From a bacterium (GTDB lineage: Bacteria > Desulfobacterota > Binatia > HRBIN30 > CADEER01): a stretch of DNA of 46,355 bases. The stretch lies in contig JBDTMT010000001.1 in the NCBI GenBank assembly GCA_039934135.1, forward strand, positions 1 through 46,355, given 5' to 3'. The position numbers were made by a program, and so were the translations under genes. This document shows, one piece after another, positions 16,557-46,355 of the stretch (position 1 is the first letter of the stretch; each line of letters starts with the position of its first letter). Under the pieces are notes generated by a model. The model did no database searches. It was not told the origin of the DNA and saw only the letters and a list, made by a program, of their open reading frames with translations.

Positions 16557-17666
16557 TCAGCCGCCGCGGATCGCGTTGACGACCTGCGCCGCGTTGATGG
16601 TCTGACCGCCCCACTTCAATGAGCCAAGGATGAAAACCCGATCGTCGCTGCCGAGACCGACGGTGCCGCCCAGGCCGACGTTCACCCACAGTTGGTAGGC
16701 GCCGGGTATGCGGAAGTTGCTCGTCAGTGCACCGCGGAAGCCGTTGCGCGCGCCGCGATCCTCCGGATCCTCGTAGAGGTAGGCGCCGTCGAGCGACACC
16801 GACAGTGTCGGCCGCCCGACCCGCATCCGCACGCCGGCCAGCAGGGTGTCCTGGCGGAAGAAGGTGTCGTCCTTGTCGGGGTCGGGCGTCTCCTCATCGA
16901 GGCGGTAACGTAACCCGAACATCAGTTGGGAGGTCTCCTCCAGCAGTCCCGGCGGCTTCTTCAGTATTTCATTGGCTTCGTCATCGGTCTTCGCATCGCG
17001 CGCTCGGCGCAGCCTGTCGTCGAATCCGTAGGCGAACGTGGACCAGAAGGTCGCGCCGTTCCACTGCGTCGAGCCGTTGGTGCCGTCCTCCTGGATCCAG
17101 GTCGGCGCGGCGCCGATGTCCCAGGCGGTTCGGTTCCAGTTCCGTTGCTTCGCCTCCTTGTGGCAGACCTCAACGTCCGCTTCAGCAGCAACTGCGGCAC
17201 GGCTGACAGCGTCCTGGAACTCTTTGAGGGTGGCGAAGTCGGTGGGGCGTGGAATGACCGACCGCCTCAGGCATCTGCGCAGCAGGATGTCGAGCCGCGG
17301 ATCGCCATAGTCGATCGGCGTCAACTTGAAGCCGAGGGCGAGCTTGAGCGAGGTGTCGTCGCTGTCGGTACCCTTCGTGGTGGCCGCCGACACCTCAAAG
17401 TTCGACGCCAGCTGCTGTGCCAGCGAATCCTCATAGTCCTTGATCGTCAGTTGCTTGCCGCGCAGCAACAGCCACGGAACGGTGTCGAGCGCCAGGCCGG
17501 CCTGGAAGTTGCCGTTCGGATCGAGCCCACTGAGGACGTCGACCGCAACCTGCCGCGGGCTGGCGGGTCGGGTGATCGTCTCCGGCGTGAGGTCGAGGGC
17601 GGTGAAGGCGGGCGATTCCGGCACCGCGAGGTCGAGCTCGGTGAGATCGGCCGGCAACTTATCCAC
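16557..17666 (-). CDS. Hypothetical protein (369 aa), beta-rich, no signal peptide recognised
   Basis: GC3-consistent ORF starting with GTG (17666), overlapping the upstream gene's 3' end by 8 nt (17659-17666). No recognisable family. Alternating strand-like C-terminal half (GAYLYEDPEDRGARNGFRGALTSNFRIPGAYQLWVNVGLGG). Confidence 0.55.
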   Translation of the reverse strand: MDKLPADLTELDLAVPESPAFTALDLTPETITRPASPRQVAVDVLSGLDPNGNFQAGLALDTVPWLLLRGKQLTIKDYEDSLAQQLASNFEVSAATTKGTDSDDTSLKLALGFKLTPIDYGDPRLDILLRRCLRRSVIPRPTDFATLKEFQDAVSRAAVAAEADVEVCHKEAKQRNWNRTAWDIGAAPTWIQEDGTNGSTQWNGATFWSTFAYGFDDRLRRARDAKTDDEANEILKKPPGLLEETSQLMFGLRYRLDEETPDPDKDDTFFRQDTLLAGVRMRVGRPTLSVSLDGAYLYEDPEDRGARNGFRGALTSNFRIPGAYQLWVNVGLGGTVGLGSDDRVFILGSLKWGGQTINAAQVVNAIRGG

Positions 17667-18192
17667 GACCTCGACTGTCCGCTTCGACTGCGCCGCGACG
17701 ACCGCGCTCGAAGCGGACGATCTCCGTGTCGCCCTGGGTCAGCGTCACGCTGAGGAAGAACCGGGCGCCGGGACCGAATTTCAGGGCTTTGATCCACACC
17801 ACCCAGAAGAGCGTGAAACGGTCGATGTCACCGAGGTCGGCGAGCGTCGGGACGAGATTGAACTCGTCTTCGATGTCATCGTCGTTGGTGCTGTGCGCCA
17901 CCTCGCTCGGATTCATGCCGTTCTGATCCCAGAGCGACACGCTGTACTCGCCAAGCTGCAACTGCGTGACTTCGATGCGCATGCGGGGAATCGGCCCCGC
18001 CGCTGACAGGGCGACCTTCCGCTTGTCCTCGCTGCTGTCCGCCGCTGCGGCGCCGGCTTCCAGGTCGCGCGTCCGCGATGCGGCTGGAGCTCCGCTGGAC
18101 CTGCTCTTCTTCGGCCGCGTCTTCTTCGTTGGAGCGGCCGGTTTGCCGGAGGCCGCCTTGCCGCGGCTACTACGCTTCGCCTTACGCGCCAT
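17659..18192 (-). CDS. Hypothetical protein with Lys/Arg/Pro/Ala-rich (histone-H1-like) N-terminal tail
   Basis: Start MARKAKRSSRGKAASGKPAAPTKKTRPKKSR (18192), preceded by GAAGGAGGGG. A C-terminal ~110-aa globular part follows. Translationally coupled to 16557..17666. Confidence 0.55.
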   Translation of the reverse strand: MARKAKRSSRGKAASGKPAAPTKKTRPKKSRSSGAPAASRTRDLEAGAAAADSSEDKRKVALSAAGPIPRMRIEVTQLQLGEYSVSLWDQNGMNPSEVAHSTNDDDIEDEFNLVPTLADLGDIDRFTLFWVVWIKALKFGPGARFFLSVTLTQGDTEIVRFERGRRGAVEADSRGRG

Positions 18193-18294
18193 CTCCCCTC
18201 CTTCGTGGGCGGCGAAGGTTGGGGGTGGCCACGCGACGTTCCCGCTGCTCACCGGCAAGTGGCAGTGGCGCTATCAGTCGAGGAGACGGTGCGG

Positions 18295-18315
18295 CGATTG
18301 GGACTTCCCCCGATG
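18295..18315 (-). promoter_or_regulatory. Island motif copy (CATCGGGGGAAGTCCCAATCG in gene orientation)
   Basis: Ends 102 nt upstream of the 18192 start and is oriented toward it. Core GGAAGTCCC shared with 36851, 37711, 37872; related core at 18526. Confidence 0.5.
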
Positions 18316-18525
18316 GCGGAGCGCGGGCGCGACACCGGCGCGCCATGACCCGATCGCGGACTGGGGTGATCTCGATCGCCACCACGCAGCTCGGCCGGCA
18401 TGTCGATGGACTCGGACGTCGGCGGGCGCCGAGCTCGCACCGCGCCGCGCCAAGTGACGGTGCTGTCTCGGCGCCCGCTCGCCGAAGTTCGGGGTCGTGT
18501 CGCGCCTGGCGGCCGGCGGCGCCAC

Positions 18526-18545
18526 ATTAGGGAAAGTCCGTATTG
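18526..18545 (+). promoter_or_regulatory. Island motif copy (ATTAGGGAAAGTCCGTATTG)
   Basis: 109 nt upstream of the 18655 start, oriented toward it. Followed by TTGTTC, 18 nt, then TAAGAA, which could be -35/-10 elements. Confidence 0.45.
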
Positions 18546-18654
18546 TTCCTTGCGGTATCCGCATCCTAAGAACGCGCCCCATGCCGCCCCATCGATACGC
18601 TGCCGAGGGCCGATCACTGCGTGCGCCGTCCCGTCGCGCGGTGAATGCGTGCGC

Positions 18655-19446
18655 ATGATGGGCGCGCTCCTACTCGGCCTCGCCGCGCTGTTCGTCGTCG
18701 TCTGCGGCTGGAAGCTGGCGCTGCTCGGCGCCGCCATCGGCCGCCTGCGCAGGGTATCCCCGCGCCGGCGCCCGCTGCTGAGTCAGGCGATTCGCGCCCA
18801 CACGCTGCATCTGCTCCTCGCCGGCGTCGGCATCGCATTGCTGCTGATGGCCGAACGGCTACCCGGCGACGTCTATCTGTATGTCGCACCTCCGCCGCAC
18901 CCGATCGCGACAGCCACCGTGGCGACACCCGGCACGCCGCCGCCCACGCCGCCGCCGACCACTCCGCAAGAAGTGCACGCGATGCGGCTGGCGCGCGAGG
19001 AATTTGTCGACTTCCCGCCCTTCGCCCCAGGGTGCGCCTGCGATGACGAGAAAGCTCGGGACGACGAGGAGACGCAGAAGGTAAAGGACCAGCGCGCGCG
19101 CTCGGTCGAGGAAATGGGCCGACGACTGGCGGCCCAGTACAACAGCAACCAGCTGCGCTTCGTGCTTGTCGTCGGCACATTCGACCACACGTCGCTGAGC
19201 CCTGAGACGAACCGCCGCTATGACAGCAACACCGCGCTGGCGCAGGAGCGAGCCGAATGCGTCGCGCAGATGCTCAGGCCACTCCTCGAGCAGAGCGCCG
19301 CGGGCGCGGACTGGGACGAGATCCTGCACACCATGGTTGCCGGACCGCAGCATGCGCGCGGCCGACATCCCACGGAGCTCTTGCGCGCCCGAGATCGCGG
19401 CGTCCGCATTCTGGTCGGCGGCGACACGGTGGAAAGCAGAGGCTGA
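18655..19446 (+). CDS. Two-TM membrane protein with Pro-rich linker and OmpA/MotB-like C-terminal domain (tentative)
   Basis: Start MMGALLLGLAALFVVVCGW (18655). Second helix LHLLLAGVGIALLLMA. PPPTPPPTTP linker. C-terminal VVGTFDHTS...YDSNTALAQERAECVAQML...RDRGVRILV resembles the OmpA-like peptidoglycan-binding pattern. The stop overlaps the next start (TGATG). Confidence 0.5.
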   Translation: MMGALLLGLAALFVVVCGWKLALLGAAIGRLRRVSPRRRPLLSQAIRAHTLHLLLAGVGIALLLMAERLPGDVYLYVAPPPHPIATATVATPGTPPPTPPPTTPQEVHAMRLAREEFVDFPPFAPGCACDDEKARDDEETQKVKDQRARSVEEMGRRLAAQYNSNQLRFVLVVGTFDHTSLSPETNRRYDSNTALAQERAECVAQMLRPLLEQSAAGADWDEILHTMVAGPQHARGRHPTELLRARDRGVRILVGGDTVESRG

Positions 19447-22208
19447 TGACCAATCCAGCACCCCGTGCGCAGGCGCATTCGTCGCGCAGCTACCTGACCG
19501 ACACGTCGACTGAACACGACCGGCTCAATTTCTACGACACCGCGGTACGGGTCGCCGCGCGTCTGTCGCACCCGTCACAGCAGACGCCGCTCAGCGTCGC
19601 CGTCCAGGGCGCGGACGGCAGCGGCAAGACGACGTTCATGCGCTTGATGCGCGCCGCGCTAAAGGAGCAAAACAGCGCCTGCTGGAGCGTGTGGTACGAG
19701 CCCTGGCGTTTCGATACGGCGCGCGATGCCTGGCGCGGGCTGGTCTACGAATTCACCGACACTGTCGGCACCCCTCAGCGTCGCGGCCGGACATGGTTCG
19801 CCTCCGCCAAGGGATTGATGGAGCGGCGCTGGTCGTACGATCTGCTGCAAGCGGTCGAGGACGATCCGGGTGGTCCGGAGGTCACGCGGCAGTTCAGACG
19901 CTATCTCGAGCGCGTCGCCCAGCGCCTGAACGGTGCGCATGGACCGGCATCGCCGCTGGTGGTGGTCTTCATCGATGACCTCGACCGCTGCACGCCGGAG
20001 AGCGCTGCGGCCGTCCTGCAGGCGTCGACGCTCTTGCTGAACAGCCGCGGATTCGTGACGGTCTTCGGCCTCACGCCGGGCGCGTTCAACTCGATCGGCC
20101 GATCGGCCGCCGCCGGTTCCGGCACCAAGACCCGGATCGCCTCGCCCGAGCGCTTCTTCCAGATCGCGTTGCAAGTGCCGACGGTCAGTCGGGCCCAGTT
20201 CCGCGCCTACGTGGACGCGTGCGTCGATCAGAGCGCCTGCCCGTTCGATCGACGCTGGACGGATGTGCTGTCCTGGGTGCTGTTCCCCAGCCCGCGTGAC
20301 GTCAAGCGGTTCCTCAACTACCTGATCTCCGAGTGGGACAAGGCGGACAGTGCCCGGTTGCTGCCGAGCGAGGCATCGATCACCGCGGGCCACTCGACGC
20401 GCCCTGGTACGAACGACCCGAGCGTCGACGATGCGACGACGGCGGCGAGTGGTACGACGCTCGGCACGACGCCGCCAACGCCGAGCCCTCGTGCCGAGGC
20501 GGCCGGCGTGCTGCGCTCGTCCGCCGACGCGGCGCACTCCCAGTTCGTCCTGCTGGCTCTGCTCACGTGGCGCTTCCCCGAGGTCGCCGACTACCTGCGT
20601 GGCGCTCAGGCCGATCCGGACGCCTTCGACCGCCTGGTCCGCGCCGCGCTGCGCGCGGATGCCGAAGATACCGGAATCGAGGTCGCTGCCCCCGGCGATG
20701 CCAAGGAGGGAAGGGAGCACGGATTCCTGGCCGATCCGGCGCTGCGTGGCCTGATGATCGATTCCTTCGGCACGGCCGAAAGGGGGGCGCATCGTCCGAC
20801 CCTTGTTCCGCCGTTCCGGTCCCCGGCCGAGCTCGGTGGCTTGTTGTTCCACTTCGGCGGTGCGCCGTCGGCGGCCGATCCGCTCAGCGGGTCGCTCGGG
20901 CCGGTCAATCCGGAATGGTCGGCCACCACGAGCCTGCAGGAGGCGCGCGACCGCAGCGCGACGCGCGGCGACATGGCGGCGGCGAAGTGGAGCGCCGAGC
21001 TGCTGCAGCGCCGCCAGTCGACCGATGCGATCGTTAGCATCCGTGCCTATCGCGAGCAGGCGCGCAACAACCAGCAGATGGGTCTGCAGGCGGAGTCGCA
21101 CAATCTGGCGAACGAGGCGCTCGCCATCGCCGCGGGCAACAAGGTCTCGGCCGGGCAACGACCGCTTGCGTATGCCGAGGCACACCTCGCCCTCGCGGAA
21201 CACTTCGCCGCCTTCTCGCCGCTCAGCTCGGCGATCGACCAGGCGCAGGAGGCATGGACCTTCGCCCTCGAGGCCAAAGAATCCAACACCCAACTGCAGG
21301 CGCTGATCGCGTTAACGTATGCGCGCAAGCTCGACTGGCAGAATACCCAGGCGATCGCGGACTGCCGGCAGGCCCTCGAGCTGGACGGCAAGACGGGTGG
21401 CCTGCGCGACGTCACGTTGCGGCTTCTGCTGGCCGAGCTGCATCACCGTCAGGCGCGCCAACACCAGCGCGAATGCAAACAGGCCGCATGGCGCGCCGAG
21501 ATCGACGCGGCACTGGCGCAGAGTGCGCTCATCGATGCTGCGATTGCCGCCGCCCCGCGCGACGAGCGCCAGCGGTACGAACGCCTACGCAGGCGGCTGC
21601 TCGACGCGCAGCGCGACGGTCTCACGGCGGATCCCAACACGCCGAGCCAGCCGGTCGCCTTCATCAGCTACGCGCACAAGAATCCGGAGCCCTTCGGCCG
21701 CGTTCGGACGATCCTCGACGCCTGGAGGGTCAGCGGAAAGTTGCACGTGTGGGAGGACACGCAGATCCAGGTCGGCGCGCTCTGGCAACTTGAGATCGAG
21801 AGCGCCCTCGAAGAAGCCACGCATGCGATCATGCTCTCGTCGCCCGAGTACGAGGCATCGGAATTCATCCGTTGGGTCGAGCGCCCGCGCATCAACTCGA
21901 TGTTCAACCGGGGCGACATCACCCTCCTCATCATTCCGCTCGGCGGGGCGGTCACCAAGTCGACGCTGAGCGGCATCCAGTTCCTGTGGCCCCAGCCGCT
22001 CGATTCGTTGGACGAGGCGCATCGCGACGAAGCGTGGAAGGGCATCACGGCGAAGCTCGAGGCCATCTTCAACCCCCCGCCTCCGGCCGGCGGAGGAGTC
22101 ACGGCCACGGCGGCGGCGGGTAGCGAGGTAGGCAACGCCGCGCCCGTCGGGTCAACCGCGTCATCGGCGCCCCCGCCGTCGTCAGACAGGCCGTCCGCCG
22201 GTGGGTGA
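19446..22208 (+). CDS. KAP-family P-loop NTPase with helical-repeat (TPR-like) middle and C-terminal TIR domain
   Basis: Start MTNPAPR (19446). Walker A GADGSGKTT. KAP signature VVVFIDDLDRC and PRDVKRFLNYL. No TM insertion. Repeat-like alpha region. C-terminal TIR: VAFISYAHK...VWEDTQIQVGALWQLEIESALEEATHAIMLSSPEYEASEFIRWVE. Confidence 0.8.
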   Translation: MTNPAPRAQAHSSRSYLTDTSTEHDRLNFYDTAVRVAARLSHPSQQTPLSVAVQGADGSGKTTFMRLMRAALKEQNSACWSVWYEPWRFDTARDAWRGLVYEFTDTVGTPQRRGRTWFASAKGLMERRWSYDLLQAVEDDPGGPEVTRQFRRYLERVAQRLNGAHGPASPLVVVFIDDLDRCTPESAAAVLQASTLLLNSRGFVTVFGLTPGAFNSIGRSAAAGSGTKTRIASPERFFQIALQVPTVSRAQFRAYVDACVDQSACPFDRRWTDVLSWVLFPSPRDVKRFLNYLISEWDKADSARLLPSEASITAGHSTRPGTNDPSVDDATTAASGTTLGTTPPTPSPRAEAAGVLRSSADAAHSQFVLLALLTWRFPEVADYLRGAQADPDAFDRLVRAALRADAEDTGIEVAAPGDAKEGREHGFLADPALRGLMIDSFGTAERGAHRPTLVPPFRSPAELGGLLFHFGGAPSAADPLSGSLGPVNPEWSATTSLQEARDRSATRGDMAAAKWSAELLQRRQSTDAIVSIRAYREQARNNQQMGLQAESHNLANEALAIAAGNKVSAGQRPLAYAEAHLALAEHFAAFSPLSSAIDQAQEAWTFALEAKESNTQLQALIALTYARKLDWQNTQAIADCRQALELDGKTGGLRDVTLRLLLAELHHRQARQHQRECKQAAWRAEIDAALAQSALIDAAIAAAPRDERQRYERLRRRLLDAQRDGLTADPNTPSQPVAFISYAHKNPEPFGRVRTILDAWRVSGKLHVWEDTQIQVGALWQLEIESALEEATHAIMLSSPEYEASEFIRWVERPRINSMFNRGDITLLIIPLGGAVTKSTLSGIQFLWPQPLDSLDEAHRDEAWKGITAKLEAIFNPPPPAGGGVTATAAAGSEVGNAAPVGSTASSAPPPSSDRPSAGG

Positions 22209-22347
22209 ACTGCGTCGTCCGTCGGCGTCTCGGCCGCACGGGGCCTCCGCCGCTGCTTCCCGCGGCCGGGCCCTCTGCCCCCCTCGTAGCGACGGAGAGC
22301 AGGCACGTCGGGAACGGGCAACGAGATCTCCGTGCGGAGCGCTGTGA

Positions 22348-23526
22348 ATGAAACTATGCTTCATTTCATACGCGAGGAACAGCAATCTCGACGGCCGGTT
22401 GACGAAGTTCGTCGAGAAGCTGCAGCAGCAACTCCCGGGGCACCTGCCTCACGGTACTAAGCCCGCCGATGTCGTGTTCTTCGATGTGATGGGCATCGAG
22501 AACGGCGACGAGTGGATGCTGCGTCTAGCGGAAGCCACGCGTCGTTGTCGGGTGTGCGTCTGCTTCTACAGTCCACCGTACTTCACGAGTGAATATAGCG
22601 GGCGAGAGGTGCAGGTGTTCCTGCAACGCGTCCATGATTGGAAGACCACGAATCCCGGGCGGGATGTGCAGGCGATCATCCCGGTCATTTGGAGACCCCA
22701 CCATCCGATCCCTGCCGTCTTGCAGGTATTCCAATACGCTCACCAGGGTCTGCCTCCCGCATACGTCGAAGACGGGTTGCACTCGCTCGCTATGCGAAAA
22801 GGCCAGCGAGACGCGTACAATAGAGTTCTCGAAATCCTTTCTGCACGGATCGCAGCTGCATTGCAGGGCGCGCCCCTACCCGATGGACCGCCGATTGCCT
22901 CGTTCGGACAGGTGGCGAGTGCATTCCACGTTGCGCCGAGCCCAACACGGTACGGTGCGTCTGTGATTCTACTCGCCACCCCGGAACGCCGGATGCAGCC
23001 ATTCGCCGCCGCGGCCGTGTCGCTCGATGTCCTGGTGGAGCGAGTTGCCAACAGAAGTGCGGTGCCGTTTCGCGAGATCAATCTCGGCGCACAGACCGCC
23101 GCCGACGTGGCTGCGTCGCAAGCCGCACGGGAGATGCCGGTGTTGGTCGCGGATCGTGCGTCGCTCAGCTCGCCACTCAACCAGCCGCTCGTTCGGGCTC
23201 TGGCGGCGACCTTTGACGCGTCTGCCACTGTGGTCGTCTTTGGCGATCCATCGCCAAATGCGTCCGATGCGGCCGCGGATCTCCGCGGTCTCATCAGCAC
23301 CGCATTCGTGCCGTGGGGCAGCGGTCTGGGATCGACGTCCTGCCTCGTGGCAACCGATCCGGCGATTTTCGAGTCGGAGCTGGAACGTCGATTGACGAAG
23401 GCTCGCCACGAGCTGATCTCGGCTGACCCGGCTGGGCGCGCTCAGCACTCCGGCTTGGAAGCGGAGGCCGCGGCTCGCGGCATCTCGGTCGGCAGTCAGC
23501 CCGTTCTGGCGAGTCCTGGTGCCTGA
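22348..23526 (+). CDS. TIR-like domain protein (FxsC-like architecture: N-terminal TIR-like domain plus uncharacterised C-domain)
   Basis: MKLCFISYARNSN...VVFFDVMGIENGDEWMLRLAEATRRCRVCVCFYSPPYFTSEYSGREV. Visibly lower GC and GC3 than flanking backbone genes. Confidence 0.7.
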   Translation: MKLCFISYARNSNLDGRLTKFVEKLQQQLPGHLPHGTKPADVVFFDVMGIENGDEWMLRLAEATRRCRVCVCFYSPPYFTSEYSGREVQVFLQRVHDWKTTNPGRDVQAIIPVIWRPHHPIPAVLQVFQYAHQGLPPAYVEDGLHSLAMRKGQRDAYNRVLEILSARIAAALQGAPLPDGPPIASFGQVASAFHVAPSPTRYGASVILLATPERRMQPFAAAAVSLDVLVERVANRSAVPFREINLGAQTAADVAASQAAREMPVLVADRASLSSPLNQPLVRALAATFDASATVVVFGDPSPNASDAAADLRGLISTAFVPWGSGLGSTSCLVATDPAIFESELERRLTKARHELISADPAGRAQHSGLEAEAAARGISVGSQPVLASPGA

Positions 23527-23527
23527 T

Positions 23528-31826: not shown

Positions 31827-31827
31827 G

Positions 31828-36800: not shown

Positions 36801-36850
36801 GTCGTTGGGTGGCCGCACGCCACCGGCATCGGCCCGCGCTCCGCCGCCGT

Positions 36851-37702: not shown

Positions 37703-37710
37703 TCGATCGT

Positions 37711-37892: not shown

Positions 37893-37946
37893 TCCGCTCA
37901 CTGACCGAGGCGCTAGCCAGCGTCGGTCGGCAGGAGGAGCGAGGAC

Positions 37947-38927
37947 ATGGCCCGAATCGAAGTGCGGCTCTTTGGACGTTTTGCGCTGTCGCGTGGCGGA
38001 TGCGCGGTCGACAGCATCGGCGCCACCAAGCTGCGCGAGATTCTCTGCTACCTGCTCCTGCACCACGACCGCCCGCATCCGCGCGAGCGGCTGGCCAGCC
38101 TGCTCTGGCCCGACACGACGACCGAACGCTCACGTAAGTACTTGCGTCAGGCGCTCTGGCAGTTGCAGGCGGCGCTGCGTGGCGGCGATCGCGACACGGG
38201 CGCGGATTGGCTGCGGATCGAGACCGACTGGATTCGCCTCGACGTCGACGGCGAGGTCGACGTCGACGTCCTGCGCTTCCAGGCGGCGGTGACGGCCGCG
38301 GCGACCGCCGCCGGCGACGGGCCATTGCCGGCCGAGGTGGCGGCGAGCCTGGAGGCCGCGGTCGAGACATATCGCGGCCCCCTGCTCGAGAATTGCTACC
38401 AGGACTGGTGCCTGCGCGAGCGCGAGCGCCTGCACGATCTCCTGCTCGACGCGCTCGACCTGCTGGCGGCGCATCACGAGGCGGGGCGTCGCTACGCACC
38501 CGCGCAGCAGTGGACCATGCGCCTGCTGCGCGACGACCCGGCCCGTGAGGGCGCCCACCAGCGGCTGATGCGGATACACTACCTCGCCGGCAACCGCACC
38601 CGAGCCCTGCGCCAATTCGACGAGTGCGTCTCGGCGCTGGACGACGAGCTGGGCGTCGAACCGAGCGCCGCGACCACGGCGCTGCGCGATCGCATCCGCG
38701 CCGGCGAACCGGTCTCGCCGGCCGTCGACGCGGGCGCACCCGACCTCGACCATATCCTGCGCCACCTGCGCGACCTCGAACACGAGCTCGCCGGCGTGCA
38801 GGGACATGTCCGCCAACGCATCGCTGAGGTTGAGCGCGTGCGCGCCGGCATGGCCGTGCCGTCCGCCCCGGCCCGCCGCCCGCTCCGCCGCGCGGCGCCT
38901 CTGCCGCGTACCGCGGCGCAGCGTTGA
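37947..38927 (+). CDS. SARP (AfsR/DnrI/RedD) family transcriptional regulator: OmpR-type winged helix plus BTAD
   Basis: ATG after AGGAGG. IEVRLFGRFAL...LREILCYLLLHHDRPHPRERLASLLWPD. BTAD pattern YRGPLLEN...WCLRERERL...LMRIHYLAGNRTRALRQFDECVSALDDELGVEPS. Confidence 0.8.
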   Translation: MARIEVRLFGRFALSRGGCAVDSIGATKLREILCYLLLHHDRPHPRERLASLLWPDTTTERSRKYLRQALWQLQAALRGGDRDTGADWLRIETDWIRLDVDGEVDVDVLRFQAAVTAAATAAGDGPLPAEVAASLEAAVETYRGPLLENCYQDWCLRERERLHDLLLDALDLLAAHHEAGRRYAPAQQWTMRLLRDDPAREGAHQRLMRIHYLAGNRTRALRQFDECVSALDDELGVEPSAATTALRDRIRAGEPVSPAVDAGAPDLDHILRHLRDLEHELAGVQGHVRQRIAEVERVRAGMAVPSAPARRPLRRAAPLPRTAAQR

Positions 38928-39062: not shown

Positions 39063-42000
39063 CTACTTGCGGGGTCGTCGCGTCGCTTGGCCCTGCTTGG
39101 CGCGCGGCGTCGCGGCCGGCTTCTTGCGGCTCGGCTTGGCGGCTGGCATCTTACCGCGCGGCTTGCCGGCAACACGCTTGGGCTTCCTCGCCGGGGCGGC
39201 CGGAGACGCGACCGGCGCGGCGCCGGCGGTGAGGTCGTCGCGCAAGCCATCGAGCCCGGCGCGCAGCCGCTTGCGCCGATCGGCGGCCGGCTGCAACACG
39301 GTCATCTCGATCAGGAACTCCAGCTGCTCGACGATCGAGCTGAGCTCGCGCGGGCTGGCGGCGCGGCGGTGCAGGTTCGCGTAGGTCGTGGAGATCGACG
39401 TCCGCACGGTGGCCTGGTCGAGATCGCCGCTGAGCAGATGGATGAGTACGTCGCAGTCGGGCGCCACGGTGCCGGCCCAGAAATCCGGTTGGCGCGTGTC
39501 GCGCTTTACGCCTTCTCCGCGCGCTTCCTGCAGCCAGCGTGCGACGTCGACGCCCGACTTCCCGCCCGCCCAGTCATACAGGATCTCGGCCGTCAGCCAG
39601 TTGAGCAGCGGGTAGGGGTCGCCCACCGTGAAGGTTCGCTCGCCTTCGCCGGGACCGTGCGCCTCGCGGTAGCAGCTGGCCATCTTCTTCAGCGCGGCGC
39701 GCCGTTGATCGCCGCTCGTCAGCTGCGCCTGACGCTTGTACGCGGCGCCCAGCAACGACAGCCGCTCGCCGGTGCGCCCGAGTTCGAGGAGCCGGGTGAG
39801 CCGGTCGATGGCGCCCTGCACCAGGGCCGCCGGCTGCTCGCCCTTGAGCCCATCCGCGACTCCCTTCTGGAGATCGATCGCGGCGCGGCTCTCGAAGTTG
39901 GCGAGTTGCTCGATCGCCGCCACCGACGGCGACCCGTCGGCGGCCAGCGCCCGGCGCAGCTCCAGGACCGCCCTATCGAACCGCCGCAGCTCGCCATAGG
40001 CGATGCCGAGCGCGGCGAGGATATCGCCGCGCAGCAACCAGTCCGGCCGGATGGCGCTGGCGAGATGGTCGAGCCGCTGGAGGAACTGGCCCATCTCCTC
40101 GGGGCCGCAGGTCCTGGCGCGCTGCGCGACATGTTCCAGGTCGCGCAGCGTCTCGACCGCAGCCACCGGCGACGCTGGCGTCGCGTCGTCGCCCGCCGCA
40201 CCGTCCGGAACGAACGTGTAGGCTGGATCGCCGTAGCATTGATAGGCGCCCCAGGTGTTGAAGCCGGGATGGCGGTCGTAGGTGTCGTTGCGCGCCCGCA
40301 GAACGGCCGTCCCGAACGGCGTGCCGCGTAGCAGGTGAGCGTAGAAGGCGGTGGCGAAGGTCTCGGCCGCCGCGTCGTCCACCGCCCACCCGGCGGCGAC
40401 CACGGCGCGCACGCCCATCTCGATGAATTGGGCGGCGATGTTGGCGGCGAAGCGCTGGAAGTGCCCTTCCTGCAGTGGTGCGCTGAGCGGCGTCGCCCGG
40501 TCAACTCGGGCGAGGTGGCAGCAATTGATGAACACCAGCTCCGGCACTCGCCGCATCTGTTTCACGGCGGCCGCGGTGAGGAAGACCCTGTCGCCGATGA
40601 CCATGCCGCTGACCCGTCGCGGTGCGCGCGTACGGGCGGAAGAGGTCGCGCCCGTGTCACCCGCCGGCGCGCACGAGCCGGCGCTGTCGTTGGCGGCCGG
40701 CTCGACCGGGAAGTCATGCACGCCGTGGCCGGCGAGGTGAAGGACGCGATAGGCATTCGCGTGCAGGGCGGTGAGGATCGCGTCCGGATCGCTCTGGATG
40801 CAGGACCGGACCACGAAGCCGGCGCCGCTCAGGCTGCGCTCGACGGCCCGCACCTCGGTGGCGGCGCCCGGCAACGGCGTCGCGAAGCCGCCCGTCTCTG
40901 GGTCGCCGATCAGCAGGGCGGTGCGTTCGGCGGTGATCTCGACCCGCTCGCGATAGTCGTGGGTCTCCAACTGGCGCAGCACGCCGCGCTCGAGGGCCAG
41001 CGGCCGCTGACCCTCCGCCCAACGGTCCTCGAGCAGCTCCCAGGGATAGCGGGCCGCGCACTCGTCGACCACCAGGACCAGCGAGTCGCGATTCGGCATC
41101 TGGTCCTTCAGCGCGTTGGGCAGCAGCATCTCGAACAGGGTGCGGGCGGTCTCCTGGCTTGAGGCCGGCTGGCGCGTGGCGTGATCGAGGAACTGATCGA
41201 CCAGGCTGCGATCGGTAGCGACCAGCTCGACTTCGGCGCGGGCGCGATTGGTCAGCAAGGCGAAGCGCAGCCCGTCCTCGACGCCGCGGATCTGCAGGCG
41301 CTGCCACCATCCCGCGCTCTCTTCGAACAACACCCGCCAGCGCGCGCCGGCACGCTGGACGAGCAGCGGATCATCGATCAGCAGCCCACCGCGCAATTCG
41401 GCGTCGCTCTCCAGGCCGCGCAACGCTCGGGCGGCGTGGATGGCCTGGTCGCCGAACAGCTCGATGAACTCGACTGCGTCGATCAATACCTCGCGGTCGA
41501 GCTGTGCCTGCCGCAGGGCGGAGTTGGTCCGCACCTCGGCCCGCAGGATCGCCGCCACCGACTCGCGCACCGGCAGACCACCCGCGCCAGTGCCGATGAG
41601 CAGCGAGGTCAGGCACACCGAGCGCGGCGCACCGAGCGGAGTCTCCGGGTCCCGCGGCCGCTCGGCGACGGTCATGACGTAGTCGCGCACGCCGGCGGCG
41701 ACCGTGCGGGTGAGGCCGGGCGCCGTCAGCTCGCCCACCTGGCCGAGTCCGACGACGATCGCCCCGCCGCGGCGAAACGGGTCGTTCTGTAGGACGGAGG
41801 CGTGCGTGCCGATCGCCCCCGGGTAGAGCCCGAGCTGCAAACGGTGGCGCAGGTGGCCATCGAGGTGGCGGTCGAGGACCGCTTCGGCGCTGACGATGGT
41901 GTCGCCGGTATAGTGACCGACGATGACCGGGTGGCGGGCGTACGACAGATCGCCGTGCGCGACCGACACTGTGACGCGATGCGCGGGCGGCGCGGCGGCA

Positions 42001-44627
42001 CGGTGGCGGCGCCGCGCGCCAATCGCGGCGCGCGCCAGCTCGTCCTCATCCGGCATGACGTCGGCGATGTCACGCGGCATGGTGAAACGCTCCTCGACGC
42101 CGCGCACCGCCACCGGCGGCGCCGTCGGCAGACGGGTGGTGTTGCCGGTGTGCAGCAGTTCTAGGAGCGCGGTGAACGCCGGGGCGTGGTTGGCGAGGTC
42201 GCCGTGCTCGGCGTCGGCCATGTACCAGGTCTGCAGTCCCTCCGGGATGCCGGTCGCCCACGGCACGCGGCCGTCTCCCCGGCTGGTGGCGACGAAGCGC
42301 AGGCGGTTGCCGGCCTTCTCGCGGGTGTGAAACTCCATTTCCACCGGTGTCGCCGGCGCCCAGCCGGCGACGTAGAGGACGCGATCGGCGTGCGGCAGCT
42401 TGGCGGACAGCCGCGCGCGCGCCGCGCGCGCCGCCTCGAGCGCCGCGCGCGCCGGCGGCACCCAGCCCTGGTTGTCGATGTCGGCGATGCGCGCCCAGGT
42501 GGCGGGTGCGAAGAAGTCCATCGCCGCATCGTCGGGCAGCATCTCCAGCGCACCGGGGAAGCGGGAGAGAATGGCGAGAAGCTCCTGACGCGAGTGGCGC
42601 AGGTCGGCCAGCGCCAGCTTGCGCAGGGTGCCCGAGGTGCCGACCAGCAGGCTGGTGATTTCGTGCGAGCCGCCGTTGGGGGTGCCGAGCATCACCAGGC
42701 GTCCCTGCGGGTGCGCACAGATGCGGTCCCACAGCTCCGGCGCCTGGGCGATCATCATGCGCGCCACCAGGCCGCCCATCGAGTGGGCGAGGAGGCGCAG
42801 CGGCTGGCCGCTGGCCGTGGCGGCGTCGAGCCGCATCCGCACCTCCTGCCCGAGACGCTCCGCTGCCTCGGTGATCGACCGGCGCCAGTCGTACGGGAAG
42901 GTGACGACGTCGTGCGAGTCGCTCAGGAACTCGACCAGGTCACCGTAGGCGAGGCCGACCAGCGACTGGGTATCGACGTTCGGCGCGTCGATGGCGATCT
43001 TGCGCAGACCACCCGTCGCGAGGCTGAGCGGGTTGATCCAGACGCGGCTCCCCCCGGCCGCGAGATGGCTCCCCATGATGCCGGGTATGACGAACACCAC
43101 CGGCCGCGGACCGGCCGGCCCGCGCATTGCCCGCTGCGGCACCTCACGCGACTCGCCGGTCGGGACGCTGAAGCCGCCGTCGCCGTCATCGGCGCGGGTC
43201 AGGCCCGCCACCACCCGCTCGGCGGTGCGGGAGTTGGCGAAGTAGGTGAAGTGGCTGACCTCGGCCCCCTGGTCGAAGAATGCGCGCACCGCGTTGCTGC
43301 GCGGCGCGCCCCCGTACATCGAGCGGGTGTCCACCACCAGGTCGTGGTCGCCGCCGAAGAACAGGTCGGGGATCAGCAGCTTCAGCGTGCCGAGGAAGCC
43401 GCCGCCCTCGGCGTCGCCGGCGACCACCGAGAGGTCGGCGTCGACGGTGCGGGCGGGATTGTTGAGGAGCCGCACGAGCGCGGCCTCCGGCATCATCGCC
43501 TCGAGGCCGGGCAGCGATTTCGGATTGGTGCGCTCGCGGGCCACGGCCAGCGTCAGGTCGACGATGCCCTCGTACAGCGGGTTCTGGTCGAGGCCCGGGA
43601 TGCGCCCGACCAAGTTGGCGAGGACGGAGAGCCAGCGATCGAGCTTGCCGGACGCCAGCGTCGTGCCGCGCGCCGGGCAGGCGACGCGCACGAAGCGTTT
43701 GACGGTGAACTGGCAGGCCTTGTCGTCGAGCAGTGCCGACAGCTCCTCCAACTCGCGGCGGCGGTCGGCCTTCACCGCCGGACTGAGCGCGGCGTCGGCG
43801 TCGGCATCGTCGCCGCCGGCGTACAGATCCAGATCCTTGGCGTCGAAGGGACGCCGATCGCGCTCGGCGACCCGGCAGAGGAGCTCGCCGACCAGACCGC
43901 CACGCGAGTGGCTGACGATGTGCAGCGGGCGACTGGCGAGACGCTTTAGAGCGGTCAGCAGGTCGATGGCGTTGCGCACCGGGCTCTCGCTCAGCGTGCG
44001 ATGCTCGAAGGCGAAACAGGCCTTGCCGTAGGAGTCGCGCAGGCGGCGGAGCTCAGCGGCGCGCGGCGCCGACCACAGCGCGCCGAAGCTGCCGGCGGTG
44101 CTCGAAGCGGTGCCGTGCAGGAAGAGCAGCGCCGGCTGGTCCGCGGCCAGCTTCGGCAGCGTGTCGGAGAGATCGAGCGGCCCATCGAGCGAGCAGGCGA
44201 GGAGTCGCGAGTCGCCCCCCTCCAGCCGCTCTGCCAGCTTGCGCGCGGCATGCTCCTGCGGGCGGATGTCGAAGATCTGGAGTGCCTTGAGCACCAGGGC
44301 GCCGATGCCGCGCGTCTTCAGTCCCACCTGCAGGTAGGGCGAGATGGCGATCTCGTCGCTGCCGACGCTACGCGATGCCGAGCCCGGGAACTCGCGCCGG
44401 AAGTCTTCGAAGCGCATCCAGAGGCGTACGTCGCCTTCGATGTGCAGCTCGATGACATCGTCAGGTGTCACTCCCTCGATGATCACCGGCGCGGCGGCTG
44501 GTCCGCGCGCCGCATCGAGGTGGACGGCGCCGCGGCGCTTAACCGCCAGCAGACCGCCGGCCCGCCGTCCATCGTCGACGCCGCCCGACGGCACGTCGGG
44601 GGTCCCTGGAATGCGCAGCGTGGCCAT
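39063..44627 (-). CDS. Giant (1854 aa) multi-effector protein: two alpha/beta-hydrolase (lipase-like) modules, CHAT protease domain, TPR-like region and basic C-terminal tail
   Basis: Start MATLRIPG (44627) after GGAGAG. LLFLHGTASS...HIVSHSRGG. VVFVIPGIMGSHL...FPYDWRRS...LLAHSMGGLV (LCAT/PGAP1-like). CHAT dyad RVLHLAGHG / LVFINCCHLA. C-terminal helical repeats, then KPKRVAGKPRGKMPAAKPSRKKPAATPRAK. Confidence 0.8.
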   Translation of the reverse strand: MATLRIPGTPDVPSGGVDDGRRAGGLLAVKRRGAVHLDAARGPAAAPVIIEGVTPDDVIELHIEGDVRLWMRFEDFRREFPGSASRSVGSDEIAISPYLQVGLKTRGIGALVLKALQIFDIRPQEHAARKLAERLEGGDSRLLACSLDGPLDLSDTLPKLAADQPALLFLHGTASSTAGSFGALWSAPRAAELRRLRDSYGKACFAFEHRTLSESPVRNAIDLLTALKRLASRPLHIVSHSRGGLVGELLCRVAERDRRPFDAKDLDLYAGGDDADADAALSPAVKADRRRELEELSALLDDKACQFTVKRFVRVACPARGTTLASGKLDRWLSVLANLVGRIPGLDQNPLYEGIVDLTLAVARERTNPKSLPGLEAMMPEAALVRLLNNPARTVDADLSVVAGDAEGGGFLGTLKLLIPDLFFGGDHDLVVDTRSMYGGAPRSNAVRAFFDQGAEVSHFTYFANSRTAERVVAGLTRADDGDGGFSVPTGESREVPQRAMRGPAGPRPVVFVIPGIMGSHLAAGGSRVWINPLSLATGGLRKIAIDAPNVDTQSLVGLAYGDLVEFLSDSHDVVTFPYDWRRSITEAAERLGQEVRMRLDAATASGQPLRLLAHSMGGLVARMMIAQAPELWDRICAHPQGRLVMLGTPNGGSHEITSLLVGTSGTLRKLALADLRHSRQELLAILSRFPGALEMLPDDAAMDFFAPATWARIADIDNQGWVPPARAALEAARAARARLSAKLPHADRVLYVAGWAPATPVEMEFHTREKAGNRLRFVATSRGDGRVPWATGIPEGLQTWYMADAEHGDLANHAPAFTALLELLHTGNTTRLPTAPPVAVRGVEERFTMPRDIADVMPDEDELARAAIGARRRHRAAAPPAHRVTVSVAHGDLSYARHPVIVGHYTGDTIVSAEAVLDRHLDGHLRHRLQLGLYPGAIGTHASVLQNDPFRRGGAIVVGLGQVGELTAPGLTRTVAAGVRDYVMTVAERPRDPETPLGAPRSVCLTSLLIGTGAGGLPVRESVAAILRAEVRTNSALRQAQLDREVLIDAVEFIELFGDQAIHAARALRGLESDAELRGGLLIDDPLLVQRAGARWRVLFEESAGWWQRLQIRGVEDGLRFALLTNRARAEVELVATDRSLVDQFLDHATRQPASSQETARTLFEMLLPNALKDQMPNRDSLVLVVDECAARYPWELLEDRWAEGQRPLALERGVLRQLETHDYRERVEITAERTALLIGDPETGGFATPLPGAATEVRAVERSLSGAGFVVRSCIQSDPDAILTALHANAYRVLHLAGHGVHDFPVEPAANDSAGSCAPAGDTGATSSARTRAPRRVSGMVIGDRVFLTAAAVKQMRRVPELVFINCCHLARVDRATPLSAPLQEGHFQRFAANIAAQFIEMGVRAVVAAGWAVDDAAAETFATAFYAHLLRGTPFGTAVLRARNDTYDRHPGFNTWGAYQCYGDPAYTFVPDGAAGDDATPASPVAAVETLRDLEHVAQRARTCGPEEMGQFLQRLDHLASAIRPDWLLRGDILAALGIAYGELRRFDRAVLELRRALAADGSPSVAAIEQLANFESRAAIDLQKGVADGLKGEQPAALVQGAIDRLTRLLELGRTGERLSLLGAAYKRQAQLTSGDQRRAALKKMASCYREAHGPGEGERTFTVGDPYPLLNWLTAEILYDWAGGKSGVDVARWLQEARGEGVKRDTRQPDFWAGTVAPDCDVLIHLLSGDLDQATVRTSISTTYANLHRRAASPRELSSIVEQLEFLIEMTVLQPAADRRKRLRAGLDGLRDDLTAGAAPVASPAAPARKPKRVAGKPRGKMPAAKPSRKKPAATPRAKQGQATRRPRK

Positions 44628-44725
44628 CACGTCTCTCCGATCGGGTAGCGGGGTGCCGAGCTTTGCCCAAAACAACGAACAACCGAACGACTCGGGGCCT
44701 GGGAGCTCTTGGCAAGCCGTGCGTA

Positions 44726-44758
44726 CGGGTCACGCGGGATGGTGCCTCGCGTGACCCG
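44726..44758 (-). other. Intercistronic 11-bp-stem hairpin between the caspase-like and CHAT genes
   Basis: CGGGTCACGCG (44726-36), an 11-nt loop, then CGCGTGACCCG (44748-58). No U-tract follows in the transcribed direction. Confidence 0.5.
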
Positions 44759-44781
44759 GCGGAATATGCGGCGGATCGCCG

Positions 44782-45627
44782 TCAGTCCAGGCCGCCGAGG
44801 AAGGGCAGGTCGAGACCGCTCGCGCGTCCCTCCAGTTGCGGGATCTGATCGAAGGCGGACTTCGTCAGCGCCGCGCTGGTACGGGTGTGTAGCTCGCGGT
44901 TTGTCAGCCGCCCGCGGGCGGCGCGGATCGCCTTGCACAGGTAGTAGGTGAGGGCGCCGTTGTAGCTGCCGCCAATGTCGGCGTCGGCCGAGGTCTGGGT
45001 GGAGCGACAGCCGGTGACGAGGATTTCTGGAATGTCCACGGCGACCACGTCACGCGGCGCGCGTCTGGCGGGCGACGAGCGCAGCGAACCGCGAACGGCG
45101 CCGCGCAGCGAGCGCCCGGACTCCTCGGCCACCAGGTCCCACGGGCTGGGGAGGTAGCGCTCGACGACCTTGGCATCCGGCGGCTGCACGGCGCGGGTGA
45201 TGCTGCCGGAGTGGCAGCAGTCCATCACCACGGTCAGACTGGCGCCGCGAGCCTTGACGCGATCGATGGCGGTTCGCAGCCAGTCGTCGAGAAGCGGCTT
45301 CTTCCAGTCGAGATCGGTCGGACAGAGGATCTCGTCGCGGTGGTCGGCCTCGTCGCCGTTCTTGTCTGGCACGTTCGACCCGTGCCCGGAGTAGTGGAGG
45401 AGCAGCACGTCGCCGCGCTTCGACTCCTTGATCAGGGTGTTGATCGCGGCCTTCATCGCCGTGGTGGTGGCGGCGAAGTCGAGCAGGCGGGCGATGTCCT
45501 TGCGCCGGAAGCCGTAGACTTCGGTGAGCACGGACTCCATGTTCTTGACGTCGTTGACACAGCCGCGCAGATCCGCGCCCGCGATCCGGTAGCGGTTGAT
45601 GCCGATCATCAGTGCCTTCTTCGCCAT
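44782..45627 (-). CDS. Caspase-like (peptidase C14 / metacaspase-type) protease
   Basis: Start MAKKALMIGINRY (45627) after GGGAGG. Catalytic dyad motifs LLLHYSGHGS and VVMDCCHSGS. Confidence 0.8.
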   Translation of the reverse strand: MAKKALMIGINRYRIAGADLRGCVNDVKNMESVLTEVYGFRRKDIARLLDFAATTTAMKAAINTLIKESKRGDVLLLHYSGHGSNVPDKNGDEADHRDEILCPTDLDWKKPLLDDWLRTAIDRVKARGASLTVVMDCCHSGSITRAVQPPDAKVVERYLPSPWDLVAEESGRSLRGAVRGSLRSSPARRAPRDVVAVDIPEILVTGCRSTQTSADADIGGSYNGALTYYLCKAIRAARGRLTNRELHTRTSAALTKSAFDQIPQLEGRASGLDLPFLGGLD

Positions 45628-45712
45628 GGTCGTTCCTCCCTCTCGTTCGCCGGATGATGGCGCGGCGCCTGCCGCGGCGGAGTCTCGGGCGTGTCTGCGC
45701 CGGCGCCTCTCG

Positions 45713-46355
45713 TCATTGATGCCGCCAGAACGCGAACGACTGGAACTGGGCACCGCGCCACCAGGCGCTCGGCTTGACGATCAGGCGGTGGTTGGTGACG
45801 CCCGCCTGTGATTCGACCGGATTGCGCACCGCCCCGGCGGCGGTGCGGGCGGCGCGGACTCGATCCTCGGGCGCGACGGCGACGATGTGGCCGGAGCGGT
45901 TGGTGTCCTTGCGCTTGGCGGCGATCAGGCACACCTGTCCGGCATTGGCCGAGGCCTGGAGCACGTCGAGGTCGGGTACCCACTGCCATCCGAAGGCCGG
46001 GCCGAAGTCGCGCAGCCAGTCGTGCAGCGCGTTGGCGTTGAGCTCGCGGACGGTGGCGTCGTAGCGCACCGGCACGTCCTCGCCGGCGCCGATGCGAGCG
46101 AGGGCGGGCGGCGTCCAGAAGACCCGTGGCAGGTAGACCTGCGCCAGGTAGCAATAGTCGTAGGCGTAGACGTTGCAGTAGGTCGTGGTCGTCTTCGGAC
46201 CGTATCGCAAGTGGCTGCGGCGCTCGCTGTCGAGGTAGGCGATGATCGCCAGCAGCTCCGCGGCGCCGCGCGCCGGGTCGCTGGCGCGCCGCCGCGGCAT
46301 GCCGGTCTCGCCGAGCGGAAAGGCGTGGCCGCCATCGCGGCGGCGGGTGATGTCG
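45713..46355 (-). CDS. Papain-fold (NlpC/P60- or CHAP-like) Cys-His hydrolase, putative; 5' end may lie beyond the window
   Basis: TTTYCNVYAYDYCYLAQVYLPR (candidate nucleophile Cys) and NRSGHIVAVAP (candidate His). The frame stays open from 46300 to the window edge, so the MPRRR start at 46300 is not secure. Confidence 0.45.
   Translation of the reverse strand, partial: DITRRRDGGHAFPLGETGMPRRRASDPARGAAELLAIIAYLDSERRSHLRYGPKTTTTYCNVYAYDYCYLAQVYLPRVFWTPPALARIGAGEDVPVRYDATVRELNANALHDWLRDFGPAFGWQWVPDLDVLQASANAGQVCLIAAKRKDTNRSGHIVAVAPEDRVRAARTAAGAVRNPVESQAGVTNHRLIVKPSAWWRGAQFQSFAFWRHQ

Follow-up and report, generated by a model that had tools for sequence, protein, structure and literature searches.

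A dense, modular conflict island on a Binatia contig combines TIR-type domains, candidate nucleotide sensors and self-destructive effectors

Introduction

Do immunity-type genes that crowd one end of a bacterial contig form a single system, or several that lie side by side? We addressed this question for contig JBDTMT010000001.1 from a Binatia bacterium. The window analysed here is the whole NCBI contig (46,355 bp), whose proteins are singletons at 90% identity. An earlier note had described a dense cluster of immunity and programmed-death genes in this stretch and had treated it as one supercluster. The description of a dense cluster stands. The region from about 18.4 kb to the contig end, that is, the last 28 kb, is a real and dense conflict island. 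Conflict-type domains occur in 11 of about 17 genes within 30 kb, a density that we judge to be far above ordinary genome content. The idea of a single system does not stand. The block comprises at least five separable modules, which recur separately elsewhere (Table 1).

The island is dense and built from separable modules

Nearly all motif-based domain calls of the earlier note are supported by Pfam, PADLOC and NCBIfam. We mapped the genes of 16557-46354 by phase analysis of third-position GC (GC3) and by exact look-ups of called proteins. The large open reading frames (ORFs) of 16.5-46.4 kb were searched against Pfam, PADLOC and NCBIfam, and some also against PDB sequences. The three predicted P-loop scaffolds were all recovered: KAP (KAP_NTPase, 2.8e-18), ParA-like (AAA_KGGVGR, 154 bits) and STAND (nSTAND1, 5.6e-89, with WD40 repeats). 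Five proteins had been credited with modules of the TIR superfamily; three of them carry TIR_2 and one carries DUF4062, while the module of the fifth, which we call the hub, is as near to DNPH1 and MilB as to TIR. The expected effectors are present as a patatin, a caspase-like protease, a CHAT protease and two lipase modules. The papain-like hydrolase found no support, its only candidate (the partial gene at the contig end) being without a match in Pfam, PADLOC, NCBIfam or PDB sequences. Both proposed sensor-type domains were recovered, SLOG by predicted structure (pLDDT 91.5, closest to YpsA) and pYEATS by profile (2.8e-11). Genes that had been set apart as exceptions, namely two hypotheticals, the envelope genes and the SARP regulator, indeed carry no conflict module, although the SARP gene is syntenic with SLOG and CHAT genes. 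Nothing identifiable was found of the glnD remnant said to border the block.

The modules share a common toolkit. NAD+- or nucleotide-processing domains (TIR, DUF4062 and the DNPH1/TIR-like domain) stand together with candidate ligand sensors (SLOG, pYEATS, LAP-N/macro-like and TPR-S), NTPase switches (KAP, KGGxGR ParA-like and nSTAND1) and self-destructive effectors (patatin, two lipases, CHAT and caspase). This amounts to four TIR-type producers, or five with the N-terminal domain of the hub, and four suicide enzymes. Three candidate readers (two SLOG domains and one macro-like domain) are joined by pYEATS and TPR-S. The domain content is accompanied by intact catalytic motifs, by coupled genes and by the recurrence of each module elsewhere, as seen in homologous genomic, metagenome and plasmid loci (L001-L145) that we compared with the window.

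Table 1. Genes of the conflict island and its borders, with their module assignments.
Feature	Position	Strand	Module or remark
Two hypotheticals	16557-17666 and 17659-18258	−	GC3 map
Membrane protein, weakly OmpA/TssL-like	18400-19446	+	module 1
KAP-TIR	19446-22208	+	module 1, 920 aa
FxsC-like TIR protein	22348-23526	+	module 2 gene A, 392 aa
KGGxGR ParA-like ATPase-TIR-pYEATS	23519-25417	+	module 2 gene B
CapV-like patatin	25424-26599	−	module 3
Hub (DNPH1/TIR-like, TPR-S, SLOG)	26886-28871	+	module 3, 661 aa
Lipoprotein, TPR/beta-barrel protein, FecR-domain protein	about 28855-32640	+	envelope genes
DUF4062-nSTAND1-WD40	32634-36818	−	module 4, 1394 aa
Stand-alone SLOG protein	37022-37702	+	module 5, 226 aa
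SARP regulator	37947-38927	+	module 5
Lipase-CHAT-TPR-S	39063-44675	−	module 5, about 1855-1870 aa
Caspase-like protease	44782-45627	−	module 5, 281 aa
Partial gene, cut by contig end	45713-46354	−	no family match

We consider it fairly probable that the region is a defence or conflict island in which Thoeris-like, NAD-derived signalling leads to suicide effectors. The scheme takes Thoeris types I, II and IV and the SAVED-CHAT-to-PCaspase cascade as its models. Detection of an invader would fall to an NTPase or repeat protein: KAP, the ParA-like ATPase or the STAND protein with its WD40 propeller. In response, TIR-type domains would assemble into oligomers that exhaust NAD+ or else produce a signal derived from ADP-ribose. 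This signal would be bound by both SLOG domains (in the hub and in the stand-alone protein) and by the macro-like domain before CHAT, and binding would free the patatin phospholipase and the lipase-CHAT protein. CHAT would in turn activate the adjacent caspase, and death or arrest of the cell would forestall the spread of the invader (abortive infection). This last protease cascade is plausible because the CHAT-caspase pairing recurs in another locus (L001). Modules 3 and 5 are probably one network, since the hub elsewhere lies directly beside CHAT-TPR-S, patatin and STAND-WD40 genes.

A bolder reading, which we put forward tentatively, makes the hub the constant core of a widespread, effector-swapping immune signalling system that both makes and senses a nucleotide-derived messenger in one polypeptide. 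The messenger would be passed to interchangeable neighbours: patatin, lipase-CHAT with caspase, PLD, SIR2-TIR or Roc-COR-TIR. The hub and its SLOG paralogue would then tie the patatin and CHAT/caspase arms into one network, possibly with the four TIR-type proteins as well.

If these readings hold, the island would present several variations on TIR/NAD immune signalling within one 28-kb piece. The hub would be unusually conserved across phyla yet flanked by differing killer enzymes, and the lipase-macro-CHAT protein with its caspase could add a second bacterial protease cascade, one that is independent of CRISPR. The hub family and the module 2 pair are the most promising leads, and each module is small enough for direct cloning.

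The hub is conserved and its neighbours vary

The hub is a three-part protein with a slowly evolving sequence. Its middle part matches TPR-S (DUF4071; 3e-15) and MAP3K_TRAF_bd (8e-7). The termini, like the stand-alone SLOG paralogue, match nothing in Pfam even at E<=10, and structure prediction was therefore used for the N-terminus and for the paralogue. The N-terminal model (motifs FVAMPFG and NPNVWYELG; AF2 pLDDT 65) is matched in Foldseek by the N-glycosidases DNPH1/RCL and MilB about as well as by TIR-STING and the SARM1 TIR domain (E about 4e-4), and a PADLOC TIR effector model matches at 1.2e-4. Glu85 of the WYELG motif is invariant in the family alignment. We assign this part, with moderate confidence, to a TIR/deoxyribohydrolase-type fold, which is not the same as a demonstrated TIR domain. 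The C-terminal part (residues ~475-661) is predicted to be SLOG-like and is 49% identical to the stand-alone SLOG protein, so that the domain occurs twice in the window. When searched against PDB sequences, the hub-family profile found generic TPR proteins only.

The MAP3K_TRAF_bd match suggests homology between the N-terminal half of the hub and the regulatory region of animal ASK-type MAP3K kinases. This Pfam domain was defined on animal ASK/MAP3K5 kinases, and the ligand of the hub might thus inform the origin of that regulatory region.

The homologues listed for the hub (P0122-P0240) are 66-72% identical to it over 98-100% of its length. The few that are named come from Nitrospira, Pyrinomonadaceae, Thermodesulfobacteriota and Gammaproteobacteria. 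Divergence between phyla as far apart as Nitrospirota, Acidobacteriota and Pseudomonadota is unusually slow, despite fast-changing effector neighbours.

Hub genes are found next to a varied set of effector genes. We compared two genomic and 53 metagenome hub loci with the window's proteins by tblastn. Of these 55 loci, 17 have a homologue of the window patatin (44-52% identity) close to the hub, and in 8 the two genes are direct neighbours. A homologue of the lipase-CHAT-TPR-S protein is found beside the hub in three (L086, L120 and L124). In L086 the hub adjoins DUF7379-CHAT; in L124 the order is X-TIR, lipase-CHAT-TPR-S, DUF4062 protein, hub; and in L120 CHAT-TPR-S comes after TIR-nSTAND1-WD40, and the hub lies about 1.9 kb beyond. 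Clustering and Pfam searches of the neighbours revealed further recurrent types: LRR-Roc-COR-TIR, PLD, SIR2-TIR, a second patatin type, an EEP nuclease/phosphatase and a metallophosphatase. Among the 43 hub loci flanked by at least 2 kb of sequence, 28 or more have an effector-type neighbour.

The patatin of module 3 appears to be catalytically equipped. It matches Patatin (5e-27) and the PADLOC phospholipase effector of CBASS type (3.5e-45), and its GGGxRG, GTSTG and DGG motifs are intact in the translation.

Plasmid matches to the hub are distant paralogues only (28-39% identity). One of them, on the Rhizobium sophoriradicis plasmid pCC511_4 (L145, 12301-25440), lacks the SLOG part and is annotated as a TRAFs-binding domain-containing protein. 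Three TIR genes, a DUF4231 gene, a QueC-like gene, an HhH-GPD glycosylase gene and a carbohydrate kinase gene surround it. By its predicted gene content, this locus would be another nucleotide-centric cluster.

Module 2 is a self-contained two-gene unit

The two genes of module 2 are a conserved pair. Gene A, whose exact gene call was confirmed, carries TIR_2 (1.3e-10) and resembles FxsC_Nterm (1.1e-32). Gene B passes the AAA_KGGVGR cut-off of 90 bits and carries TIR_2 (8.8e-18) and pYEATS domains, with a match to PDC-M28B (1.4e-24). It starts at GTG 23519 or at ATG 23528, and the two genes are accordingly coupled by a stop/start overlap or a 1-nt gap. In a family search with gene B, 5192 of 8000 scored candidates reached E<=1e-10, and the ATPase-TIR-pYEATS architecture is common to all 120 homologues listed.

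The same pairing occurs in three unrelated loci: L001/L002 (metagenome), L003 and L004 (Luteolibacter, GCA_042677115.1). In each, the gene B homologue is directly preceded by a gene whose TIR protein is ~390 aa long, and in L001, L003 and L004 the two genes overlap or sit 1 nt apart, as they do in the window. Identity to gene A is 55% in L001, 46% in L003 and 32% in L004. Module 2 is thus a self-contained two-gene unit, since in L003 the pair stands alone amid metabolic genes. In L001 it occurs together with DUF4062-STAND, lipase-CHAT and caspase genes. Literature searches for the FxsC-like and KGGVGR families, pYEATS, TPR-S and type III Thoeris returned no usable publication. If the unit is what it seems, it represents a TIR / ParA-like ATPase-TIR-pYEATS system for which we found no literature.

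The accessory genes of module 2 may differ between genomes. Upstream of the pair in L004 (1237-11896) are genes for an 830-aa protein with TIR and LD_cluster2 (SLOG) domains and for a 1633-aa GMC-oxidoreductase protein with a weak patatin match. This suggests that module 2 recruits differing accessory TIR and sensor genes across genomes. An alignment of 46 members of the gene B family shows strong conservation of the ParA-like core, with an invariant KGGTGR, and of pYEATS; the TIR domain is poorly conserved.

Module 5 joins a SLOG protein and a regulator to two proteases

The stand-alone SLOG protein is assigned by its fold. Its exact gene call was confirmed (P0241), and its model is matched best by YpsA (2nx2, E 4e-6, TM 0.60), followed by DprA, ShosA, Moco carrier protein, YgdH and LOG. 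The SLOG call holds because these top matches all belong to the SLOG superfamily. Both the GGD and the GPGGT motif are conserved; G61, G62, D63, G166 and G167 are invariant, as are ERxN and GG..H. The predicted fold and the glycine-rich loops place the protein in the SLOG superfamily (SMF/DprA-LOG), and no Pfam SLOG family matches it.

The family of stand-alone SLOG proteins is large, and its members are mostly 193 aa long and without a Pfam match. Such proteins would start at the window's Met105 (37121). The window's gene call includes a 33-residue N-terminal extension (MITRRETLRQLLIGTVGLFSAAGC..., 37022-37120), which looks like a twin-arginine or lipoprotein signal and is shared by the closest homologues only (224-229 aa). 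In one locus (L142) the SLOG gene directly follows a TIR gene. We considered this gene as a relative of the window's TIR proteins and rejected it, as there is no detectable relatedness.

The SLOG, SARP and CHAT genes form a syntenic backbone in the lineage of the closest relatives found (L143 and L144, from SRR21707658 and SRR12908352; 72-78% amino acid identity). The SARP regulator (winged helix and BTAD; BTAD 1.6e-26; exact gene call confirmed) has orthologues with 72% identity that follow the SLOG gene in both. There, SUI1 comes first, with or without an AMP-binding gene after it, and SLOG and SARP follow. We base the backbone on L144, where the order is kept: a convergent CHAT gene, 72% identical over residues 1220-1818, comes after SARP. 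Upstream of SLOG, the gene content of L143 and L144 differs from that of the window. SARP, which is syntenic with SLOG and CHAT genes in a relative, probably controls transcription of module 5.

The lipase-CHAT-TPR-S protein and the caspase-like protease retain their catalytic motifs. The former matches DUF7379 (4e-37, three matched stretches), an LCAT/PGAP1-type lipase (7e-8), CHAT (5.6e-32) and TPR-S (3e-11), with intact nucleophile elbows in the lipases (HSRGG and HSMGG) and intact HLAGHG and NCCH motifs in CHAT. The region before CHAT matches Peptidase_M17_N in five of five homologues (best 2e-9), and a profile of these five matches the leucine-aminopeptidase N-domain (LAP-N) 3jru in PDB at 4.8e-6. 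LAP-N domains have a macro-like fold. The caspase, with its exact gene call confirmed, matches Peptidase_C14 (1.7e-32) and PADLOC caspase (4.7e-22), and both motifs of its dyad are intact (HYSGHG and DCCHSG). Its gene lies directly upstream of the CHAT gene. The same adjacency is seen in L001 (27-31% identity), where the pair sits beside a DUF4062-STAND gene and a module 2 pair. We also entertained a homotypic adaptor role for TPR-S between the hub and the CHAT protein; it is unsupported, as BLASTP found no specific similarity between the two TPR-S regions. The partial gene precedes the caspase gene by 85 nt on the same strand, and its membership in module 5 is uncertain.

Weighing the alternatives

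Independent one- or two-gene systems could have gathered in a hotspot with no signal passing between modules, a pure defence island that we regard as possible, if distinctly short of probable. Such an origin is suggested by modules that are found singly: module 2 in L003, hub and patatin without other modules in L085 and L091, and SLOG in L141. STAND and KAP-TIR architectures are typically self-contained, and the unrelated envelope genes break up the block. However, independence does not explain why the hub lies directly beside CHAT-TPR-S, STAND-WD40 and patatin genes in several arrangements, why the hub and the CHAT protein have a TPR-S domain in common, or why module 2, DUF4062-STAND, lipase-CHAT and caspase are found together again in L001. 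Several further points count against networked defence signalling. The envelope genes interrupt the island, and many of the 53 metagenome hub loci come from sister samples, so that the number of independent arrangements is far lower, perhaps six to eight. The candidate catalytic Glu of TIR is only a majority residue in the gene B alignment, and the TIR domain of this family may therefore be an adaptor rather than an enzyme. The N-terminal model of the hub is of moderate confidence. Finally, each step of the signalling chain is proposed by analogy.

Other functions would explain the conservation of the hub differently. An identity of about 70% across phyla is unusual for an immune sensor and fits a housekeeping nucleotide enzyme too. 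The hub and the stand-alone SLOG protein might thus be LOG- or DNPH1-like N-glycosidases whose proximity to effectors is incidental. The SLOG family often lies amid housekeeping genes, including metabolic genes in L140 and L141; miaA is the hub's sole labelled neighbour in four loci; and the predicted folds match metabolic enzymes (DNPH1, MilB and LOG) as well as immune ones. Nevertheless, we find this explanation very improbable given the effector-type neighbours at most well-flanked hub loci, the patchy distribution of the hub, the distant Rhizobium plasmid paralogue among TIR and DUF4231 genes, and the fusion to TPR-S, which is unexpected for a metabolic enzyme. The high conservation of the hub would also suit a regulated apparatus of programmed cell death or kin conflict in a socially complex bacterium, serving development, stress lysis or antagonism, with SARP as developmental regulator. 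In relatives, SARP sits among the SLOG and CHAT genes in a syntenic block adjoining housekeeping SUI1, and seven of the eight systems of Kaur 2020 show enrichment in multicellular bacteria. Nonetheless, where experiments on homologous domains exist (DUF4062, TIR, CapV-like patatin, caspase and CHAT), these domains act in anti-phage defence, and we rate this apparatus as unlikely. An island of defence or conflict genes with NAD-derived signalling is the reading that we retain.

Comparison with known systems

The island shares the logic of Thoeris without being a known Thoeris type. TIR proteins of Thoeris make ADP-ribose-derived signals that are read by SLOG (type I) or Macro (type II), and the caspase-like protease of type IV is switched on by a signal that a TIR protein makes. 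The window has TIR-type, SLOG and macro-like domains and a caspase, and fits this scheme of an NAD-derived messenger acting on a suicide effector. However, no ThsA (SIR2 or TM fused to SLOG) or SIR2 match was found in its large ORFs, its PADLOC ThsB matches are weak (E 5.7e-5 to 5.5e-3), and its SLOG domains are stand-alone or fused to DNPH1/TIR-like and TPR-S domains; it does not belong to type I. Nor does it belong to type IV. Peptidase_C14 runs to residue 308 of the 323 in the long ORF (266 of 281 in the gene call), so that the window caspase is without the additional C-terminal domain found in the type IV effector. Its gene adjoins the CHAT gene and the partial gene, and no TIR gene.

Bacterial conflict systems studied by the Aravind laboratory offer a thematic match. 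Their 'nucleotide-centric' systems are said to include those of Burroughs et al. from 2015 and 2020. The domain vocabulary is the same (TIR, SLOG, nSTAND1, KAP, caspase and variable effectors), as is the swapping of effectors around a constant core. Kaur 2021 names nSTAND1 and treats KAP as a STAND substitute. The earlier note had assigned the block to the NTP-dependent systems of Kaur 2020, and this assignment survives as a theme and not as membership. Kaur 2020 defines MoxR-vWA ternary, DO-GTPase/GAP1, NucA-trypsin and EACC1-caspase systems, and its text does not contain the terms pYEATS, TPR-S, CHAT or patatin. The match is no more than thematic, as none of the defining MoxR-vWA, DO-GTPase/GAP1, EACC1 or NucA cores turned up in the large ORFs that were scanned. 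The vWA-MoxR system consists of an adjacent MoxR AAA+ ATPase, a vWA co-chaperone and a third component (VMAP, iSTAND, FtsH or beta-propeller), whereas the window's large ORFs have no MoxR or vWA match. In EACC1-caspase systems a 5' gene for a single-TM EACC1 domain lies directly upstream of the caspase gene (Kaur 2020); in the window caspase_w_EACC1 scores 56 bits against a cut-off of 140, and the upstream partial gene is without a family match. DO-GTPase/GAP1 and NucA-trypsin cores are likewise absent from the ORFs scanned.

Functional precedents exist for single steps. The earlier note knew of no characterised representative of these gene combinations, and we too found no report testing these exact combinations; close precedents are nevertheless available in the DUF4062 NADase, in TIR-to-caspase signalling of type IV Thoeris and in SAVED-CHAT-to-PCaspase. 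SAVED-CHAT of type III-B CRISPR is reported to process the caspase-like PCaspase (bioRxiv 10.1101/2023.06.23.546230). Similarly, a CHAT protease gene adjoins a caspase-like gene in the window. Unlike that system, the window has no SAVED, CRISPR-Cas or cOA synthase, and its CHAT is fused instead to two lipase modules, a LAP-N/macro-like domain and TPR-S, which places it outside this system. DUF4062 is reported to be a TIR-like NADase in anti-phage defence and in human TEP1 (bioRxiv 10.64898/2026.05.01.722283). The module 4 protein has an N-terminal DUF4062, and Pfam Beta-prop_TEP1_2nd matches its propeller, although its NTPase is nSTAND1 and not NACHT.

Three further systems are resembled in single proteins. 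The patatin matches models of cGAMP-activated phospholipases such as CapV of CBASS and has intact catalytic motifs. However, it scores 126 bits for NCBIfam CBASS_lipase (1.8e-36), under the cut-off of 200; no CD-NTase was found by Pfam or PADLOC among the large ORFs scanned; and its conserved partner is the hub. We therefore do not class it as CBASS. KAP-TIR scores 53 bits against a QatA cut-off of 600, with no QatB-D, and falls outside Qat and PifA. Module 2 recalls Fxs through the FxsC_Nterm match of gene A and the AAA_KGGVGR match of gene B. The former nevertheless reaches only 113 bits against an NCBIfam cut-off of 130, and neither a radical-SAM FxsB nor an FxSxx-COOH peptide gene was found in the scanned ORFs, so that module 2 is not an Fxs system.

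Modules 1 and 4 and the envelope genes

Module 4 encodes a full nSTAND1 protein. The profile matches over positions 1-378 of 379 (299.8 bits), the Walker A (GVSGSGKSS) and Walker B (VIDQMEELF) motifs are readable, and the C-terminus is a WD40 propeller with many WD40 matches. Full-length match, Walker motifs and C-terminal repeats place it in the nSTAND1 NTPases (PF20703). The N-terminus, which contains SIFLSSPSD, is a DUF4062 domain when scanned alone (1.2e-5, 25.8 bits against a cut-off of 24.7), and PDC-S60 also matches there (4.9e-10). Its candidate Glu, as read from the motif, sits in GTAYELE. The protein would have the layout of a self-contained STAND sensor-effector. We take this DUF4062-STAND-WD40 layout to mirror that of TEP1.

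Module 1 couples a membrane protein to KAP-TIR. The membrane protein, which has a weak TssL/OmpA match at its C-terminus (E 5e-4), is probably the first gene of the module. GC3 phase backs its frame from about 18600, and the position of its start codon is uncertain. Its stop TGA (19444-19446) overlaps the ATG of KAP-TIR (19446-19448) in a TGATG coupling. KAP-TIR combines KAP_NTPase, AAA_16, a helical region and a C-terminal TIR_2 (7e-7, residues 802-895 of the long ORF); QatA, PifA and PDC-S20 match its N-terminal P-loop only. No conserved link between KAP-TIR and module 2 was seen in the loci examined, and in L004 the TIR-SLOG gene holds that position.

Three co-directional envelope-type genes lie between modules 3 and 4. 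The first encodes a lipobox protein without a family match. The second encodes a TPR protein whose C-terminus, ending in an aromatic residue, is weakly like PEP-CTERM-associated or SlipAM beta-barrels, and the third a FecR-domain protein with a signal peptide. These genes indicate a diderm host. None of their homologues was found near hubs in other loci, and we saw no link to the modules.

Genomic context

Base composition hints at more recent horizontal acquisition of modules 2 and 3. The GC content of the window is high (0.63-0.73). It falls to 0.64-0.65 across 22-27 kb, against 0.69-0.72 in the flanks, and GC3 is also lower over these two modules.

The two hypotheticals before the island have no Pfam, PADLOC or NCBIfam match and no visible link to the modules. 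They overlap by 8 nt (17659-17666), and the smaller one has a Lys/Arg/Ser-rich N-terminus. Further upstream, an ammonium-transporter (Amt) gene (14202-16199) matches model positions 131-406 of 406. Some 130 N-terminal residues are absent, and an additional C-terminal region of ~250 aa has a weak TAT-signal match. This gene may be truncated or rearranged. A search of genome contigs for relatives with the Amt gene found none that is close, the best being Tautonia at 69%, and no synteny; in tblastx of the region, similarity begins at about 15815. A tRNA-Ser gene (TGA anticodon, 8443-8530) also lies upstream of the island, followed by a BrnA-antitoxin ORF (8568-8939, minus strand) and a Phd/YefM-antitoxin ORF (9307-10155). 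The tRNA and toxin-antitoxin genes of 8443-10155 could be an integration hotspot.

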